From a virus (Duplodnaviria > Caudoviricetes): 64,000 nt of DNA. The notes beneath the pieces are model-generated. The model was not told the origin of the DNA and did no database searches. It was given only the letters and a program-made list of their open reading frames with translations. The stretch lies in the IMG/VR virus record IMGVR_UViG_3300010167_000010, positions 1-64,000 of that record; one strand, written 5' to 3'. The first letter of the stretch is position 1, and each line of letters starts with the position of its first letter. The position numbers were made by a program, and so were the translations under genes. Positions 27,747 through 58,962 of the stretch are shown here, in pieces.

Positions 27747-27860
27747 GATGACTGTAGCTCAGTGGTAGAGCACTTAAACCGGATCGTGTATATGGTCTTC
27801 ACCGCAATTCTAAACGCAATTTTAATGCAGTGGTCGGACGTTCAAATCGTTCCAGTCATC
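27747..27860 (+). ncRNA. tRNA-like RNA whose anticodon arm is replaced by a ~55-nt insert carrying the ACxGCAA motif
   Basis: acceptor GATGACTG/CAGTCATC, D arm GCTC/GAGC, T arm GGACG-TTCAAAT-CGTTC; no anticodon loop. Confidence 0.75.
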
Positions 27861-27900
27861 TAATGGTTATACTTAATGGGGTCGCACCTCATTAAATGAA

Positions 27901-27961
27901 TGTCGTGATGGGGATAGGTTTCCTCTGGCGCCACGATTGGGTTCGAGTCCCAAACACGATA
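27901..27961 (+). ncRNA. anticodon-less mini tRNA-like RNA
   Basis: TGTCGTG/CACGATA stem plus TTGGG-TTCGAGT-CCCAA T arm. Confidence 0.55.
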
Positions 27962-28097
27962 TAAAATTGAGTTGAAAGAACCAGGTTGCTACTGGAAGTT
28001 TAATTAACTTCCTTGAAAATTGCCTCACTGTCTTTTGGGAGTGCGCACTCCTTAATCCGTGCGGATCAGGTTAAAGTCGGCGGAGGAAAACTCAAAT

Positions 28098-28181
28098 GGG
28101 CGGTTGCCAGAATGGGATTGGAGCGGGCTTTTAACCCGTTGGAAAATTCTTCCAAAGAGTGTTCGATTCACTCATCGCTCA
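28098..28181 (+). tRNA. tRNA-Lys(UUU) with long variable arm
   Basis: GCGGG-CTTTTAA-CCCGT; V arm TGGAA/TTCCA. Confidence 0.82.
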
Positions 28182-28188
28182 AGTTTTA

Positions 28189-28262
28189 GGGCACATAACT
28201 CAGATGGTACGAGTCCCTGACTTTTAATCAGGTTGTCGGTGGTTCAAATCCACCTGTGCTCA
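28189..28262 (+). tRNA. tRNA-Lys(UUU)
   Basis: CCTGA-CTTTTAA-TCAGG, canonical. Confidence 0.92.
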
Positions 28263-28283: not shown

Positions 28284-29441
28284 ATGCACAATTTTTTTAA
28301 TAATACTAAGAATAAAATTACTCTTATAATTTTATTGATGACAACAATCGCTTATGCTTCTTTATACTTTGTAGTTTATTTTACTGTAAAAGATGCATTA
28401 GATAGTAAAATGATTAATAATGTAACTTCAATTGCTGCATCTATATCAAAAACTATTGAAAATGATTTAGATAGATATTTATATTTTATAGAAACTAAAG
28501 ATATTTATTCAGATTATTATTTAGAAATGAATAGACATTTTGCACACCTAAAAGAAATTGGTTCATTAGCATATATTTATACAGTACGATTAGTTTGTGA
28601 TAACTATCTAGAATTTTTATTAGATGGTGAATTAAAATTTTCTGAATATTGGTCTGCACCGGGTGAATTAGAAGAAATTGATATAGGTGGAATAATTGCT
28701 TATTCAGAAAATAGGGTAGTTGGATTAAGAGATAAATCTGAATGGGGAGATTTAATAGTTGGGTATGCACCCATTCGTAATAAAGACGGAGAAATAATAA
28801 GTTTAGTTGGTGTTGATATTAGTGGTGATTTATTAAGTTCTTATTTGAATAAAATACAAATAATTTTAATTTTTCTTTATGCTATTTTATTAATTGTAGT
28901 TTGGATATTTGCAAAACAATATTCTAGTTCTATAGTTAAATCTATGTCAAAAGATAAACTTACTGGCGCTTATATAAAAAGATATTATGAATCAATATTA
29001 AAATATTGTGTTAAAAAAATGAATAGGAAAGATGATAAATTATTTGTAATGATTTTAGATTTAGATCGTTTTAAAAATATAAATGATAATTATGGTCATC
29101 CTTTCGGCGACAAAGTTTTAACAGAAGTTTCTAAAACAATTATGGGAATTTTAAGAAATAGAGATTATTTAATTAGATATGGTGGAGAAGAATTCGTAGC
29201 AATAATTCAATGCGATAAAGATATGAGAATTGAAGATGTAGCGAACAGAATTAGAATAGCTGTATCTGAGACTAAAATTTATAATGAAGAGCATAATAAA
29301 GATATTAGTTTAACTATTAGTATTGGCATAAGTGTTTATTTTCCAAAAGGAAAATCTTCAGATATGATACATCAGGCTGATAAAGCTTTATATGAAGCTA
29401 AAAAAGAAAGAAATAAAGTACATAGATTTATAAAAGGATAA
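28284..29441 (+). CDS. membrane-bound diguanylate cyclase (GGDEF domain)
   Basis: 2 TM around a periplasmic sensor; DKLTG, DLDRFKNIND.YGH..GD, RxxD I-site, RYGGEEF, ADKALYEAK. Confidence 0.93.
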   Translation: MHNFFNNTKNKITLIILLMTTIAYASLYFVVYFTVKDALDSKMINNVTSIAASISKTIENDLDRYLYFIETKDIYSDYYLEMNRHFAHLKEIGSLAYIYTVRLVCDNYLEFLLDGELKFSEYWSAPGELEEIDIGGIIAYSENRVVGLRDKSEWGDLIVGYAPIRNKDGEIISLVGVDISGDLLSSYLNKIQIILIFLYAILLIVVWIFAKQYSSSIVKSMSKDKLTGAYIKRYYESILKYCVKKMNRKDDKLFVMILDLDRFKNINDNYGHPFGDKVLTEVSKTIMGILRNRDYLIRYGGEEFVAIIQCDKDMRIEDVANRIRIAVSETKIYNEEHNKDISLTISIGISVYFPKGKSSDMIHQADKALYEAKKERNKVHRFIKG

Positions 29442-30195: not shown

Positions 30196-30198
30196 TAA

Positions 30199-30400
30199 AT
30201 TATATCGGACAGTCGCTAATAGAAATTTTTTTATTAGAGGAAACTCAGGGCACCTCGAATCAATTGAAGGAGATTTTAAATCGTTATTACTTCAATAGGG
30301 TGCAACACAAACAGACTAAGAGGATGGATCTTGCTCTATGAAGTCGGGTAGTGGCTTAGATAGATGACTGTTAAAACAGAACCCTGGTTATGGATATAAT
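30199..30400 (+). ncRNA. rnpB: minimal RNase P RNA (catalytic domain only)
   Basis: P1 ATTATATC/GATATAAT; GAGGAAACTCAGGGC and AACAGAACCCTGGTTA P4 halves with compensatory changes; CAGTCG/TGACTG P2. Confidence 0.88.
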
Positions 30401-30406
30401 TAAAAT

Positions 30407-32166: not shown

Positions 32167-33381
32167 ATGATGAATATTGAAAAATTAGAATCAAGATTAG
32201 AAGATACTCATAAAACAGTTGCTGTATTAAGAGGAATGCTTGAAGAGTCTTTAATTCAAGAAGTATGTAAATTTTTAATTACTATTGGAAAAACTGAAGC
32301 AACAAAAATTTGTGCTATGTTAGATGAACAAACTTTAGAAACTATAACGTTTGAAATAGCTAGACGAGAATATCTAACTGAATCAGAATGTCAAAATATT
32401 TTAGAAATGTTTTGTAATTTATATGATAATGATAATTTTATAGTTTTAGGTGGAATAAATTATGCCAAAGATTTAATGACAGAAACTGTTGGCGAACAAA
32501 AAGCTATAGATATATTAAATAGAATGTCATCATCATTACAAATTAAACCATTCGACTATATAAGAAGATGTCATCCTATAGATTTATTAAATATAATTCA
32601 ACAAGAACATCCTCAAGTAATAGCTTTAATTTTATCTTATTTAGAACCAAATAAAGCATCTATAATGTTACAAAATTTACCAGCTGAACTAAGATCAGAT
32701 ATTACCAGAAGAATAGCTTGCATGGACAGTATAGAACCAGAAACTTTACGAGAAGTTGAAAGGGTTTTAGAAAAAAAATTATCTACATTATCTGCTGAAG
32801 ATTATTGGAGAAATGCCGGCGGATTGCCAGCGGTTGTAGAAATATTAAATTTGGTTGATAGAGAAGTTGAAAAACAAGTTATAGAAAATTTAGAAGATGA
32901 AGACCCAGAATTAGCTGAAGAAATTAAAAAACGAATGTTTATATTTGAAGATATTGTTATGTTAAATGATCATTATATACAAAAAATATTACGAAATGTA
33001 GATAGTCAAGAGTTAGCTAAAGCATTATTTAATGTAGATTCAGAAGTACAAAATAAAATATTTAGAAATTTTTCTAAACGAGCTGAAGCAATGTTAAAAG
33101 AAGATATGATTTATATGGGTCCATTAAAATTAAAAGATATCGAAGAAGCTCAACAAAAAATAGTTTCTATAATTCGTAAATTGGAAGAAGACGGTGAAAT
33201 TTCACTTAATAGATGTGGTGAAAATGAAATGATTTCTCCTAATCTAAATATAGATGAAAAAGTTCAAGAACAAATGAAAAAAGAACATGAAGAAAATAAA
33301 TTGATATTAAATAGCGAAGAAAAACATAATTTTTTTTGGAAGCTAATTCTTAGAAAAATAAAAAGGTTAACTAATGGGTAA
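32167..33381 (+). CDS. fliG: flagellar motor switch protein FliG
   Basis: [15 protein letters not shown] linker, [22 protein letters not shown]...IEEAQQKIV. Confidence 0.95.
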
Positions 33382-34771
33382 ATACGTATTAGATCAAGAT
33401 GATATTGATGATTTAGTAGAAAATGACGATTGGAAAGAATCTTTTAGTTTTAAAAAAGTTAAGGGAAAACATAAAATGACTGAAGTATTAAGTGCAAAAG
33501 AAATAGACGAATTATTAAAAGCTATTAATGCTGGAGAAACTGATCCAGAAGATTTAAAACCGGCGTGTAATGCTAGAAAAATAAAAATATACGATTTTAA
33601 GCGTCCTGATAAATTTTCCAAAGAACAAATTAGAACTGTTTCAATAATGCATGAAACATTTGCTAGATTAAGTACTACTTTTTTATCGGCCAGATTAAGA
33701 CAATTAGTTCATGTTCATGTTGCTTCAGTTGATCAATTAACTTATGAAGAATTTATTCGTTCTGTACCAACACCTACTACAATGGCAATTATAAACATGG
33801 ATCCATTAAAGGGTAGTGCAATATTAGAAATTGATCCTGCAGTAACATTTGCTTTTATAGATAGATTATGTGGTGGAACTGGAGAAGGTACAAAATCTCA
33901 ACACGAATTAACTGATATTGAAATGAGTTTAATGGAAGGAATGATTGTACGATTATTGGGAAACATAAGAGAAGCCTGGTCACAAATTATAGATTTACGA
34001 CCACGATTAGGACAAGTAGATACTAATCCACAATTTTGTATGATAGTACCACCAACTGAAATGACAGTTCTTGTTACATTTGAAGTAAAGGTTGGTGATG
34101 TAGAAGGAATGTTTAATTTATGTATTCCACATATTTTATTAGAACCTATAATGGATAGAATGTCAGCTGCATATTGGTATGGGAGTGGTTGGAATAATAC
34201 TGTCCCTAAAACTTTTAATCAAGAAAAATTAGATAATATAGATGTTTCTTTAAGAGCTGAATATTTTAAAACTACTATGTCGTTATCACAATTAAGTTAT
34301 TTATTAAATAATAATGGAATAATATTAAATGAAGATCATGAAGAAAATACTGGAAAATTATATATAAATAATTTATATATTGGGGAATTTAAAGAAATAG
34401 ACGTTTTAAGAGAACATAAGAAAATTAAAATAACAAAAATAACAAATATTATGGAGAAAAATTATATGAATGAAAAAAATAATATCGACTTTTCAGGTGG
34501 AAATTTATCTGAAATTAAGGTCCAAATAATTACTGAATTAGGAAGAACTTCTAGAACTTTAAAAGAAATTTCTAGTTTTGGAGAAGGTACAATCTTAGAA
34601 TTAGATAAGTTAGCTGGAGAACCTGTCGATATATTTGCTAATAATGTTTTAATAGCAAAAGGTGAAGTTGTAGTAATAGATGAAAATTTTGGTGTCAGAA
34701 TAACTGATGTTCTTAATCAAAAAGAAAAGGAAGAGGGGCCTTGCAAAGGAGATGAAGCTCAAAACAGCTAG
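33374..34771 (+). CDS. fliM: flagellar switch FliM fused to a FliN/FliY SpoA domain
   Basis: [48 protein letters not shown]; C-terminal [36 protein letters not shown]. Confidence 0.93.
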
Positions 34772-42733: not shown

Positions 42734-44212
42734 ATGATTAATGCTATCCAAAAAGAGATAAAGAATCAAGAAAAAAACGAGTTAATGCGATCAGAAAATG
42801 GTGCATTTATGTTTAAAACTTCGGGGCAAAATTTGCTCGATATGAATTTCCGTGTAGCGAGCTATCGCGGAGCTTCTGAAAATAAAATATTAAGTGATTG
42901 GAAAAAGGCTTTTGCTGATGATCCAGAACTTGCTGTAAAGTGGTTGTTTTATGTGAGAGATGTGCGAGAAGGTTTAGGTGAAAGAGATACTTTCAGAAAA
43001 ATTGCAAATTATCTTTCAGGTACTGAAGATAGATTCGTAAAATTAATTAATCAAATACCAGAGTTTGGTAGATGGGATGACCTTTTTTCAGTTTATGGTT
43101 CTAATAAGAAAGCTGTATGTGGGCTCATATCTGCACAACTTAATTTAGATAAGAAAAATATGAAAGAAAATAAGTCAATTTCTCTTTTAGCTAAGTGGCT
43201 TCCATCTGTAAATACATCTTCAAAAGGAAAAAGAAATCTTGCAAGGGAGATAGCAAAAGAATTATGTTTAACAGAAAGAAATTATAGAAAGACTTTAGCA
43301 GAACTTAGAGATTATCTTGACGTAATCGAAGTAAAGACATCTGGCGGAAAGTGGAATGAGATTAATTATGAAGCAGTTCCATCACAAGCGAATTTAAAAT
43401 ATCGTACAGCATTTTTCAAGCATGACGAAGAAAGACGAAGAGAATTTTTATCAAAACTTGAAAAAGGTGAAACAAAGATAAATGCTGGAACTACATTTCC
43501 ACATGATATTGTATCACGTGTAGCTAGATTAAGTAAAACAGATGCAGCATTAGAAGCAATGTGGAAAGCTTTACCATCATACGGTGTTGAAAACACTTTA
43601 GTTGTTGCAGATGGTTCAGGCTCAATGACATCTAGTATCCCAGGTACAAATTCTTCAGCTTTAGATGTTGCAAATGCGCTCGCTATTTATTGTGCTGAAC
43701 ATAATTCTGGTGAGTTCAGAGATAAGTACATCACTTTTTCAGAGAATCCACGTTTTGTCGATTTTAGCAAGTGCACAACTTTACTTCAAAAGATTCAGAC
43801 AGCTATGTCTCATAACGAAGTAGCAAATACAGATATTTATAGAGTGTTCAAACTCGTATTAAATACAGCTGTAAAGAATAATATGAAGCAAGAAGATTTT
43901 GTAAAGAATATTCTTGTTATTAGTGATATGGAGTTCGATCAAGGTACAAGTAATGCTTCTGAAAGTTTGTTTACTAAAATAGCAAAAGAATATGCAGACG
44001 CTGGATATGATTTACCACGTTTAATTTTCTGGAATGTAAATAGCCGAACAGGCGCAGTTCCAGTAAATCAGAACAAGTTAGGAGTAGCTCTGGTATCAGG
44101 TTTTAGTGTACACATCGCAAAGATGGTTATGAGTGGACAACTTTGCCCATTTGAAGCATTGAAAGAAGTCTTAATGGGTGAACGATATAAGGAGATTACT
44201 TTAGGGGGTTAA
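42734..44212 (+). CDS. DUF2828-family TROVE/Ro60-like protein with a vWA domain
   Basis: SENGA, RDVREGLGER, FGRWDDL, LAKWLPS, YEAVPS.A, PHDIV, vWA MIDAS DGSGSM, ISDMEFD, IFWNV, VSGFS. Confidence 0.8.
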   Translation: MINAIQKEIKNQEKNELMRSENGAFMFKTSGQNLLDMNFRVASYRGASENKILSDWKKAFADDPELAVKWLFYVRDVREGLGERDTFRKIANYLSGTEDRFVKLINQIPEFGRWDDLFSVYGSNKKAVCGLISAQLNLDKKNMKENKSISLLAKWLPSVNTSSKGKRNLAREIAKELCLTERNYRKTLAELRDYLDVIEVKTSGGKWNEINYEAVPSQANLKYRTAFFKHDEERRREFLSKLEKGETKINAGTTFPHDIVSRVARLSKTDAALEAMWKALPSYGVENTLVVADGSGSMTSSIPGTNSSALDVANALAIYCAEHNSGEFRDKYITFSENPRFVDFSKCTTLLQKIQTAMSHNEVANTDIYRVFKLVLNTAVKNNMKQEDFVKNILVISDMEFDQGTSNASESLFTKIAKEYADAGYDLPRLIFWNVNSRTGAVPVNQNKLGVALVSGFSVHIAKMVMSGQLCPFEALKEVLMGERYKEITLGG

Positions 44213-44256: not shown

Positions 44257-44880
44257 AAGGCGGGTTCTGCAAACCATACAAAAATCAGGATGCTGCCAAA
44301 CAAACAGTCGTCCAAATTTTGGGCGCAAAAGTAATTGTTTGGCTAGACTTTTTTGGAGTTTTTAAAGTCAATAAACTTTATAAATGACCAAGACCGTCTT
44401 GTTTATTAAAATAAGCCGCTGACGGGCGGTGAAATATATTATGTTAGGTGCGTTAACAGCAAAAACTACTTAAAAATCAATTTGGTAGATTTGTCTTTTG
44501 GAGGTTTAGACGTTAAAGAAAATTGCCACCACGCATCTAGTTTTTATTTTATTATTCCGATGCATACAGCAATTCAAACATACACTTAAAATGTAATTAA
44601 AAGTGCATCGTGTTTATTTTAGATAATGATAAACGACGGTTTATCATAAATTATAATTTAGGCGCTAACTGCAAATTAAAAAAGGTTAATAAAATTTCTT
44701 AAACAATTTTTAGTTGGTTCGATCCCGACAACGTAGAAATACGTGATTCTAACGCGTCTAGTTTTTATTTAATATGAAGGCCTTCTTAATCATTGTGTGG
44801 CCAACATATAAAAAGGTTCAAGCAGCAATTTAAACTTATAAATTATCTGTTAAATGATTATTGTTAAAATACGAATCTTG
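44257..44880 (+). ncRNA. array of five small RNAs (44257-44401, 44445-44540, 44558-44612, 44659-44761, 44813-44880), each a terminal stem + [A/G/T]C[A/T]GCAA
   Basis: covarying 7-9 bp terminal stems, conserved motif, T-rich spacers; anticodon-loop and T-arm mimics inside. Confidence 0.75.
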
Positions 44881-44905
44881 GCTCCCTTCGGGGAGCATTT
44901 TTTTT
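44881..44905 (+). terminator. intrinsic terminator closing the RNA array
   Basis: GCTCCC-TTCG-GGGAGC followed by a T run. Confidence 0.85.
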
Positions 44906-57229: not shown

Positions 57230-57526
57230 ATGAGAACGAAGAAACTTGTTAGAACAGTGAATAAAGGAAAACCAGTCGTGGAGTTCACATTGTGGCACTC
57301 CAATGAAAACGGTTATTGTCCTGTAGCTAATCGTGAGATTATTGGAATTATCAATGCTCGTTTCATAGTGAAGAAAGTTTTGAATATTACAGCGAAACAA
57401 GTAGAAATGGTAATCAATAAAATCCAAGAAGAGAAGAATTATATCGTTTTTGGAAAAGATATCGAGCCTTATTTCGAATCCAAAATCAAAAAACTTCCGA
57501 ATGTATTTTTCTTAGGAGCTAATTAA
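57230..57526 (+). CDS. early hypothetical protein
   Basis: TCTTATATAAT at 57187; AGGAGGT RBS. Confidence 0.65.
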   Translation: MRTKKLVRTVNKGKPVVEFTLWHSNENGYCPVANREIIGIINARFIVKKVLNITAKQVEMVINKIQEEKNYIVFGKDIEPYFESKIKKLPNVFFLGAN

Positions 57527-58962
57527 TGAATATTCAGTCTAAAATACCTTCCACTGCGAAGAAAATCTGTAATACCCTTCACAAAAAAGGTTTTGAGGCT
57601 TATATTTGTGGCGGAGCAATTAGAGATATAATTATTGGTCGCGAGCCTAAAGATTTCGATATTGTATCTAATGCAACCCCAGAAGATATAGAAAAACTTT
57701 TTCCGAAGACGCTTCCTATTGGAAAAGCATTTGGAATAATTACTGTTATTTATAATAATGAATCTTATGAAATTGCTCAGATGAGAATAGACGGAAATTA
57801 TTCTGACGGAAGACATCCTGATGATATTTTTATCACCCGAGATATTGAAAAAGATTTGGCAAGACGAGATTTTACAATGAATGCTATTGCGTGGTGCCCG
57901 TCAAGAGAAATAATAAGAGATCCGTATGCGGGTACTATGGATATAATGGATAAAGAAATTACTTTTGTTGGTGATGCTTTAATTCGTATTCAAGAAGATA
58001 AGCTGCGCATATTAAGAGCTTTTCGTTTTTCAAGTCAAATAGGTTTTAAAATTGCTGACAGTTCTTTAGAAGCTATTCAATTATGGATAAATGAAGGAAA
58101 TACTTTTGAAGGTGTTTCTCAAGAAAGAATTTCTGCAGAATTTAGCAAAATAGTAACTGGTAAAAATGCAATGGAAACAATTAAATTGATGGCAGAAATT
58201 GGATTACTTTGGATGATTATTCCTGAATTAAAAGATTTGTGTGAAGAACATAATAACGAATATCATACTGAGTTTATGAGGGACCTAAAAAATATTAGTA
58301 ATACTTCTATTTTGGTTCACGTATTATACGTAATAAAGTTTGCAACAGAACATCTCTTAAATAGGGGAGTAGAAACTGAAACAGAAAAATTGTTAATTAT
58401 GTTAGCAGCTTTATTTCATGATATTGGAAAACCTGTTTGTAGAGAAACAAAATCGAACGGAAAAAGTAGATATTTGAATCATGATACTATTGGTGCTGAA
58501 ATGACTTTTAATATTTTAACTCGTATGAAGTTTTCAAACGAGATTATTAAAGGTGTTACTAATTTAGTTAGAAGACATATGAATGCGCATGATATTCCTA
58601 AAATTAAAAAGGTTCATAAAATAAAGCGCATATTAGCTTCAGAGTATTTCGACTTGTTAATGATATTATCGTATTGTGATACTATGGGGACTGCTGGAAA
58701 TAATGGAGTACCTAACTTAAAGGATGCAGAAGCATTTCATAATTGTGTTTGTGATTATATATCTAAATATGGAAAGAAACTTCCTACTCCTTTGGTAACA
58801 GGTGATACTTTAATTCATCTTGGTTTTACTCCTGGTCCAGACTTTAAGGAAAGATTAGAGAAGACTTTCAATTATCAACTTAATGGTTGTGATTGTAAAA
58901 TCAAACTAATATCTTATGCAAAGGGGTTGATTCTAAAAAATCAATCTTGGGAAACACCTTAG
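57526..58962 (+). CDS. cca: CCA-adding tRNA nucleotidyltransferase (class II) with HD domain
   Basis: GGAIRD..DFDI, DLARRDFTMNA, EDKLRILRAFRF, SQERI..E, LFHDIGK. Confidence 0.92.
   Translation: MNIQSKIPSTAKKICNTLHKKGFEAYICGGAIRDIIIGREPKDFDIVSNATPEDIEKLFPKTLPIGKAFGIITVIYNNESYEIAQMRIDGNYSDGRHPDDIFITRDIEKDLARRDFTMNAIAWCPSREIIRDPYAGTMDIMDKEITFVGDALIRIQEDKLRILRAFRFSSQIGFKIADSSLEAIQLWINEGNTFEGVSQERISAEFSKIVTGKNAMETIKLMAEIGLLWMIIPELKDLCEEHNNEYHTEFMRDLKNISNTSILVHVLYVIKFATEHLLNRGVETETEKLLIMLAALFHDIGKPVCRETKSNGKSRYLNHDTIGAEMTFNILTRMKFSNEIIKGVTNLVRRHMNAHDIPKIKKVHKIKRILASEYFDLLMILSYCDTMGTAGNNGVPNLKDAEAFHNCVCDYISKYGKKLPTPLVTGDTLIHLGFTPGPDFKERLEKTFNYQLNGCDCKIKLISYAKGLILKNQSWETP

Follow-up and report, generated by a model that had tools for sequence, protein, structure and literature searches.

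Ribonucleoprotein particles of Ro60 and Y RNAs occur in animals and bacteria, and Y RNAs of the YrlA type, which mimic tRNA, are found in bacteria and mycobacteriophages. A YrlA RNA (Rfam RF02553; Chen et al. 2014, PMC4201824) ends in its Ro-binding stem, has a closed acceptor hairpin and lacks an anticodon arm; in vivo, RNase P cleaves the M. smegmatis RNA and CCA is added to it (PMC4201824). The locus described here appears to turn this arrangement inside out. It is a tRNA-like RNA at positions 27748–27860 (plus strand) of the first 64 kilobases (kb) of virus record IMGVR_UViG_3300010167_000010, a stretch called the window below, taken from a complete phage genome of 329 kb that has terminal repeats and a G+C content of ∼28%. 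Its anticodon arm carries a 41-nucleotide (nt) module, the handle, which also marks small RNAs beside the gene for a Ro60-shaped DUF2828 protein in dozens of phages; for this reason the RNA is most likely a partner of that protein. We consider it probable that this handle-tRNA is a Y-RNA-like adaptor for the Ro60-like DUF2828 protein and the topological inverse of YrlA.

The window contains a tRNA island at 25–42 kb. ARAGORN, run without introns, reports 19 tRNAs in the window, to which Rfam adds a few, but it does not report the RNA at 27748–27860. The Rfam tRNA model RF00005 gives it 42.7 bits, above the gathering score of 29, and aligns intact acceptor, D and T arms, a 54-nt local insertion being confined to the anticodon arm; this bears out the real tRNA body proposed in a first-pass annotation of this DNA. 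The contiguous anticodon stem of 5 base pairs (bp) with a 7-nt loop is absent, the stem being split into 2 + 3 bp by the 41-nt module, and CCA is not encoded at the 3′ end. The parts of the RNA are as follows.

27748–27754, plus strand: 5′ strand of the acceptor stem, ATGACTG, pairing with 27853–27859 (Rfam alignment; 7/7 pairs covary in the family).
27757–27771, plus strand: D arm GCTC AGTGGTA GAGC, followed by A26 at 27772 (sequence reading, Rfam alignment).
27773–27774, plus strand: tRNA positions 27–28 (CT), which form the two outer pairs of the anticodon stem with AG at 27829–27830 (CG/CG versus CU/AG covariation in relatives).
27775–27815, plus strand: 41-nt handle module inserted at tRNA position 28/29 (sequence, relative alignment, covariation, motif census), which by sequence comprises linker TAAACC (27775–27780), hairpin arm GGATCG (27781–27786), loop TGTATA (27787–27792), arm TGGTCT (27793–27798), a spacer, ACCGCAA (27801–27807) and linker TTCTAAAC (27808–27815).
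27816–27830, plus strand: lower anticodon stem-loop, GCA, loop ATTTTAA (27819–27825) and TGC, then AG (positions 42–43) (sequence; layout kept in type A relatives, defined below).
27831–27860, plus strand: variable loop TGGTC, T arm GGACG TTCAAAT CGTTC, 3′ strand of the acceptor stem CAGTCAT and discriminator C (27860) (sequence, Rfam alignment).

The anticodon, TTT at 27821–27823, is that of Lys UUU. C27 and U28 pair with A42 and G43, and after the insertion G29, C30 and A31 resume the helix, pairing with U39, G40 and C41. Deletion of the module leaves a flawless 72-nt tRNA-Lys(UUU) with stem CUGCA/UGCAG, loop AUUUUAA and a 5-nt variable loop. Because removal of the 41-nt insertion leaves a complete tRNA, the anticodon arm is interrupted, not replaced. 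The first-pass annotation had located its strings correctly (GGATCG, TGTATA and TGGTCT, ACCGCAA, and the array motifs discussed below), but had taken the arm to be replaced by them, whereas the full Lys(UUU) stem-loop is kept and the module sits at 28/29. In its intron mode ARAGORN offers a Cys(GCA) tRNA with a 35-nt intron, which would need C33, two nucleotides at position 26 and a variable loop of 10 nt; this call was rejected because the Lys(UUU) reading is fully canonical and agrees with all relatives. A G-1:C73 pair, earlier likened to that of tRNA-His, is present in the window RNA but is not a feature of the family, whose members have 0–2 extra pairs; the 9-bp extended acceptor found here and in the relative on contig G002 is likewise not conserved. 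Given this lack of conservation, the pair is probably due to chance.

G002 comes from a relative phage whose DUF2828 protein is 60% identical, and it contains a 119-nt Rfam tRNA match with a 46-nt insert, again at 28/29. The tRNA body differs, removal of the insert giving stem GGGGA/UCCCC and loop AUGUUAA, an Asn GUU arm. The two inserts nevertheless align from a UAAA start through a 6-bp hairpin with two compensatory pairs and a loop starting with UG to C[CU]GCAA. Only an Rfam tRNA scan of whole records exposed this homolog: BLAST of the element against three relatives missed it. BLASTN of the region against cultured phages returned ordinary tRNA matches only, and exact-pattern scans of IMG/VR (D arm plus insert start) gave nothing new, or only the relative already known. 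A covariance model, R1, was built from the window and G002 RNAs and run on 50 IMG/VR contigs picked solely for encoding a DUF2828 homolog. It yielded 62 full-length matches (103–130 nt), representing 47 distinct sequences, in 39 of the 50 contigs, so that the motif suggested by the first-pass annotation for the anticodon arm does recur there in homologs. The window RNA, a model-building sequence, scores 121 bits; independent members score 65–106 bits. With its relatives the window RNA shares a tRNA body, a UG-loop hairpin and AC[ACT]GCAA within the anticodon arm, with covariation. AC[ACT]GCAA occurs in 41 of the 47 distinct homologs, upholding the earlier expectation that ACxGCAA would be conserved, and 34 of the 47 have ACAGCAA.

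In an alignment fitted to R1, from which the pairing and covariation counts derive, 98.1% of cells in the 27 modelled pairs are paired, compared with 41–45% in controls with slid partners. For the handle hairpin the paired fraction in the family is 95.9%, and each of its six pairs shows double changes; for the 3-bp lower anticodon stem the fraction is 99.2%. Because that alignment was fitted to the model, the analysis was repeated with MAFFT and RNAalifold on 21 members, and the handle hairpin and the 3-bp lower stem were recovered unaided.

Two architectures are seen. In type A, which includes the window RNA, the module follows 2 bp of the stem and precedes the other 3 bp, which carry a canonical loop of 7 nt with U33, A37 and A38; the anticodons are GUU (the commonest), UUU, UGU, GGU, UCU, GCU and GUC. 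In type B, a 5-bp anticodon stem is capped by the module in place of the loop and the anticodon is absent, so the handle there cannot be the intron of a decoder. Two 125-nt type A members, at positions 1501–1625 of contigs L110 and L112, differ at 4 of 125 positions, two of which are anticodon positions 34 and 35, giving GUU (Asn) in one and UCU (Arg) in the other; a third relative, on L115, has UUU. Such differences between near-identical bodies suggest selection on the anticodon itself. Among Asn-type members the discriminator can be any base (U, C, G or A), and both jumbo phages also encode canonical tRNAs with the anticodon of their handle-tRNA, Lys UUU in the window phage and Asn GUU in that of G002.

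The same handle recurs in a different form next to the gene of the presumed protein partner. This DUF2828 gene lies downstream of the tRNA island and is followed by a 776-bp non-coding stretch.

42734–44212, plus strand: DUF2828/DUF7788-vWA gene, 492 amino acids, encoding a predicted Ro60-like ring, the presumed partner (Pfam, AlphaFold2, Foldseek).
44258–44881, plus strand: array of five open-handle RNAs, each composed of a 5′ arm, 2–4 nt, C[AT]GCAA, cargo and a 3′ arm.
∼44258–44401, 44447–44539, 44558–44612, 44660–44761 and 44813–44881, plus strand: the five array units, delimited by sequence.

Open handles in the window and in contigs L002 and L003 share a layout of a 6–7 nt 5′ arm, 2–4 nt, C[AU]GCAA, a variable cargo and the complementary 3′ arm, which is usually followed by UG or G and often by a run of U; in the window array the strings ACAGCAATTCAAAC, GCAGCAATTTAAAC and TGCATCGTG stand at 44566–44579, 44822–44835 and 44604–44612. 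In the insert of the handle-tRNA the order is 3′ arm GGAUCG with UG, loop, 5′ arm UGGUCU, spacer and CGCAA. At the level of sequence, the insert is the helix of the array handle with its flanks, the ends joined and the cargo side opened, that is, a circular permutation. The permutation postulated in the first-pass annotation stands up to comparison: helix and flanks are the same, the hairpin covaries, and the order of 3′ arm with UG, loop, 5′ arm, spacer and AC[ACT]GCAA recurs in the 47 distinct homologs. The short motif alone shows no enrichment in the window, where it has 8 matches for an expected 5.3 (three in the 776-bp array stretch and one in the insert), and a loose genome-wide regular expression for handles gave mostly chance matches. 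The motif, together with UG after the 3′ arm, is also found in open-handle units of L002, L003, mycobacteriophage Nicholasp3, a FelixO1-like phage and Aeromonas phage 4_4572. In two cultured phages the same open handle, with UAACAGCAA, surrounds a unit like YrlA that is made up of T arm, closed acceptor hairpin and D arm; Nicholasp3 has its copy beside a "Ro-like RNA binding protein" gene, and a FelixO1-like coliphage has the other.

An AlphaFold2 model of the DUF2828 protein, calculated from a 44-sequence alignment, has a predicted local distance difference test score of 87.5 and a predicted template modelling (TM) score of 0.85. Foldseek matches it to Xenopus Ro60 (1yvr, 2i91, 1yvp), to the human protein (9nep) and to that of Thermus phage phiLo (9kop, 9l5y), the Ro60 matches having E values of ∼1e-8 and TM-scores of 0.52–0.59. 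Genes for protein and RNA are closely associated in the family: for 56 of the 62 long R1 matches, found in 36 of 39 contigs, the DUF2828 start follows downstream on the same strand within 1.5 kb, at a median distance of 426 nt, so that linkage to a gene for a Ro60-fold protein, as expected of a YrlA-type RNA, is found at the family level. The exceptions form a jumbo-phage clade (the window phage, G002 and G004), in which the RNA is 9–15 kb away, in the tRNA island. Taken together, the occurrence in 39 of 50 contigs, the linkage of 56 of 62 matches, the shared handle and the Ro60-like model lend good support to the earlier proposal of a further DUF2828 ligand with inverse-YrlA topology.

Closed-handle tRNAs are also present in cultured phages. 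KVP40 (AY283928.2) has four, at 179301–179416, 180967–181090, 181101–181213 and 181332–181454, which correspond to the annotated tRNA-Pseudo-3, -4 and -5 and one unannotated neighbour and lie 10–12 kb upstream of its DUF2828 gene, KVP40.0300. The first of these, tRNA-Pseudo-3, is of type A and has the design of the window RNA (CG, linker, hairpin, motif CCAGCAC, then UGC-CUGUUAA-GCA with an Asn(GUU) loop; R1 73.8 bits). Aeromonas phage 4_4572 carries an unannotated type B closed-handle tRNA with encoded CCA (NC_048773.1, 77443–77559; positions 2512–2628 of our extract L127), and 2.4 kb farther downstream five unannotated open-handle mini-RNAs (stem plus UUACAGCAA; L127 4600–4985) stand directly upstream of its 'RNA-binding protein' (DUF2828) gene, the same repertoire of five plus one as in the window. 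An R1 search near DUF2828 in sampled Listeria, FelixO1-like, Bacillus, Campylobacter, Enterococcus and Staphylococcus phages and mycobacteriophages gave no closed-handle tRNA; of these phages, Nicholasp3 and REP8 had their gaps read, and both carry open-handle units. Listeria phage LMTA-94 (NC_047872.1, our L120) has at 1449–2000 an element resembling ROOL RNA (RF03087, 84.4 bits against a gathering score of 99.1), 1 kb upstream of its DUF2828 gene, and an annotated tRNA-splicing ligase (RtcB) 1.3 kb downstream.

Such an RNA might be a dead tRNA gene, a pseudogene disrupted by insertion. GenBank files the KVP40 copies in this way, and a comparison of T4-like phages merely counts such "pseudogenes" in Aeh1 and 44RR (PMC1524935); tRNAscan-type tools label homologs as pseudogenes, and the window copy escapes ARAGORN. 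Rfam files the relatives as tRNA only. Compensatory changes, however, keep every helix, the inserted hairpin included, in phages of Vibrio, Aeromonas, gut and termite-gut hosts, while insertion site and motif are invariant and linkage to one protein gene is tight. Decay of this kind is therefore a very improbable account of the RNA.

In the reading that we favour, the handle-tRNA is a complete tRNA body in the shape of an L; it keeps acceptor ends of its own and a genuine anticodon stem-loop for Lys(UUU), and a putative docking module projects from the 5′ strand of the anticodon stem. The Ro60-like DUF2828 ring probably binds this handle, which consists of the 6-bp hairpin with its UG-starting loop and the single-stranded ACCGCAA, and the module would stay in the mature RNA. 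The acceptor ends are most likely matured like those of a tRNA, presumably by RNase P and a CCA enzyme, for which M. smegmatis YrlA is a precedent. While the handle holds the protein, the tRNA part would show a tRNA-Lys look-alike to a partner that reads tRNAs. This partner could, speculatively, be an enzyme that reads the anticodon loops of tRNAs for ANN codons, perhaps a host anticodon nuclease that is decoyed or a route of tRNA repair or surveillance. Two genes of the window could serve such maturation.

57526–58962, plus strand: CCA-adding enzyme-like gene with a PolyA_pol head domain (120 bits), which could finish the acceptor end.
30197–30406, plus strand: reduced RNase P RNA-like gene, a possible 5′ processing activity (69.5 bits, below the gathering score of 100).

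The second of these, a match to the Rfam family RNaseP_bact_a that abuts tRNA-Ile(UAU), keeps catalytic-core strings (GAGGAAAC.., ACAGAACCC) and lacks most of the specificity domain, with 36 nt in place of ∼150 nt. The phage may thus encode an RNase P RNA of miniature size.

Several observations weigh against an adaptor role. The link between protein and handle is drawn from synteny and shared motifs, and Ro60 in the PDB is reached from DUF2828 by the fold search only, a sequence profile giving no match to it. In the window phage itself the handle-tRNA is 15 kb from the DUF2828 gene, within the tRNA cluster. Its own hairpin includes three G-U pairs and the insert alone is no more stable than shuffled sequences (z −0.27); folding of the whole RNA as a single sequence is likewise not significant (z −1.98), and the pairing statistics of the family come from the model-fitted alignment noted above. 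Finally, a tRNA-Lys made perfect by exact removal of 41 nt is what an intron would be expected to look like, and the phage has three RNA ligases that could seal exons.

These last points bring in the view that the gene is an intron-bearing tRNA-Lys(UUU), from which a nuclease, possibly guided by DUF2828, excises the module and a phage RNA ligase seals the exons to give an ordinary decoder. Loss of 27775–27815 does restore a perfect 5-bp stem and 7-nt loop, and all type A relatives show the 2 + 3 bp split with canonical loops (U33, A37 and A38). The ligase domains, one T4 Rnl1-like and two of the Rnl2 family, are encoded outside the window (G000:C1, 324774–325427, 124726–125187 and 226673–227170). 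The complete genome, on the other hand, encodes neither a tRNA splicing endonuclease domain (PF01974) nor RtcB; the three ligases make up a predicted phage tRNA-repair toolkit. No bulge-helix-bulge pairing was seen at the module junctions by eye or in RNAalifold, and the 41-nt insert has no Rfam intron match and falls well short of the ∼200 nt or more that a self-splicing group I core takes up. Four features of the wider family make splicing the less likely course: type B relatives hold no anticodon to restore, the discriminator is not kept as isoacceptor identity would demand, the handle versions share their genomes with canonical Lys(UUU) and Asn(GUU) genes, and the same module serves as an end-closing handle on cargoes that are not tRNAs. 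We accordingly regard an intron as unlikely.

Alternatively, the RNA might decode with the module in place, as an extra arm comparable to a class II variable arm, be charged with lysine and perhaps act as a spare tRNA-Lys that resists nucleases. The cloverleaf is whole, as are the nucleotides of the tertiary pairs and the anticodon loop, the phage encodes the CCA-adding enzyme, Lys(UUU)-type genes are clustered and the anticodons of the family read codons common in AT-rich phages. Yet we know of no precedent among decoders for a 41-nt arm leaving the anticodon stem at 28/29, a point that counts against this idea, and such an arm would be expected to occupy crowded intersubunit space. The discriminator is C73, as opposed to A73 in the neighbouring canonical tRNA-Lys, and type B relatives cannot decode. 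A decoding role is thus distinctly improbable, and less credible than splicing.

The surroundings of the handle-tRNA bear on what an adaptor could present. Within 520 nt lie three Lys(UUU)-type genes, the handle-tRNA, a tRNA with a long variable arm (28098–28181) in the middle and a canonical tRNA-Lys(UUU) at 28189–28262, found by ARAGORN. Because of this cluster, the Rnl1-like ligase and the shifting anticodons of relatives, we suspect, as speculation, a conflict over cleavage of anticodon loops. Type A RNAs could then be programmable baits, tRNA bodies held by the ring whose anticodon is swapped in evolution (GUU, UUU, UGU, UCU, GCU, GUC) to match the host tRNA under attack, so that anticodon nucleases would be captured or diverted, or cleaved tRNAs would be fed to phage repair of the Rnl1 type. 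We put this forward as a doubtful suggestion; if true, it would be a new principle of RNA-guided counter-defence across tailed phages.

Other features of the island are recorded here as observations. The middle tRNA, whose anticodon is UUU (Lys; 28098–28181, plus strand), is unusual for a tRNA-Lys in its long variable arm, which resembles that of class II tRNAs (∼14 nt, GGAA..UUCC). Directly after the handle-tRNA is a 235-nt spacer free of open reading frames (27862–28096, plus strand), with a 9-bp hairpin at 27873–27895 and, at ∼27900–27962, a tRNA-like piece that is closed by an 8-bp stem and has a T arm (UUGGG-UUCGAGU-CCCAA) and possibly a D arm, but no anticodon arm; the spacer has no Rfam match and its fold z-scores are not significant. 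The island also includes, by Pfam, a gene for a GGDEF diguanylate cyclase and genes for the flagellar switch, FliG and FliM-FliN (28284–29441 and 32167–34771, plus strand). The GGDEF neighbour protein, used as a query, retrieved no related loci.

The observation on which this analysis was based is confirmed, with the correction that the anticodon stem-loop is retained. The handle-tRNA and its relatives are probably a widespread phage version of the Ro60/Y-RNA kind. Literature on DUF2828, YrlA, phage Ro60 and bacteriophage tRNA introns, and the Rfam families, yielded no description of a handle-tRNA class; the KVP40 pseudo-tRNAs and the Aeh1 and 44RR pseudogenes have so far been database annotations only. 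Because databases label handle-tRNAs as pseudogenes or miss them, phage tRNA counts and "pseudo-tRNA" calls need to be read again. The occurrence of the class in the culturable phages KVP40 and Aeromonas phage 4_4572 offers tractable test systems, and shifting anticodons, clustered tRNA-Lys variants and phage RNA ligases tie it to the conflict between phage and host over tRNAs.

Comparison with described systems sets the class apart from each of them. Archaeal tRNA introns at non-canonical positions (PMC4090602) resemble the insert in that a short insertion in the anticodon stem is removed to restore a canonical tRNA; they require a bulge-helix-bulge motif and an EndA-type endonuclease, neither of which was found here, and the insert is instead a conserved module that is also used outside tRNAs. 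The dictyostelid Class I RNAs (PMC7919456) have a 6-bp stem joining their 5′ and 3′ ends, a 3′ end CUGU and, beside the 5′ strand, an unpaired 11-nt motif in which T, C, C, A and A are fixed at positions 3, 6, 9, 10 and 11. This is compatible with ..U..C..CAA as in UUACAGCAA, a likeness that, by the published consensus, is limited to the open handle and does not extend to a tRNA body.

The Thermus phage phiLo system of Ro60 with Yrl1 and Yrl2 (PMC12135203; 9KOP, 9L5Y) likewise pairs a phage protein of the Ro60 fold with RNA genes that lie immediately upstream, and this Ro60 structure ranks among the DUF2828 model's best matches; Yrl1 and Yrl2, however, have the classical stem-bulge-stem form of Y RNAs, their motif is CGAA, and they lack a tRNA body. 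A tRNA mimic bound to Ro60 that ends with a free, CCA-tailed acceptor provides both a likeness to the handle-tRNA and a precedent for the action of tRNA-processing enzymes on such RNAs, but it consists of two base-paired halves after cleavage, whereas the handle-tRNA is a single chain with free acceptor ends from the outset.

By analogy, the handle-tRNA probably functions like YrlA, with which it shares the proximity of a small RNA to the gene for a Ro60-shaped protein and the use of one binding module on several RNAs (PMC4201824). It does not belong to the YrlA family: RF02553 scores 27.1 bits against a gathering score of 69, in a match that takes its T arm from the preceding tRNA-Ser and its D arm from the handle-tRNA. 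Where YrlA closes its acceptor hairpin, the handle-tRNA leaves the acceptor ends free, makes its putative binding stem a closed hairpin and retains a full anticodon stem-loop; its motif is AC[ACT]GCAA as against GNCGAAN0-1G, and its presumed protein partner DUF2828/DUF7788 as against TROVE. The phage version thus differs from the known Ro60/Y RNA particles in four respects, namely a protein of the DUF2828 family, another handle, an inverted topology and a real anticodon loop.
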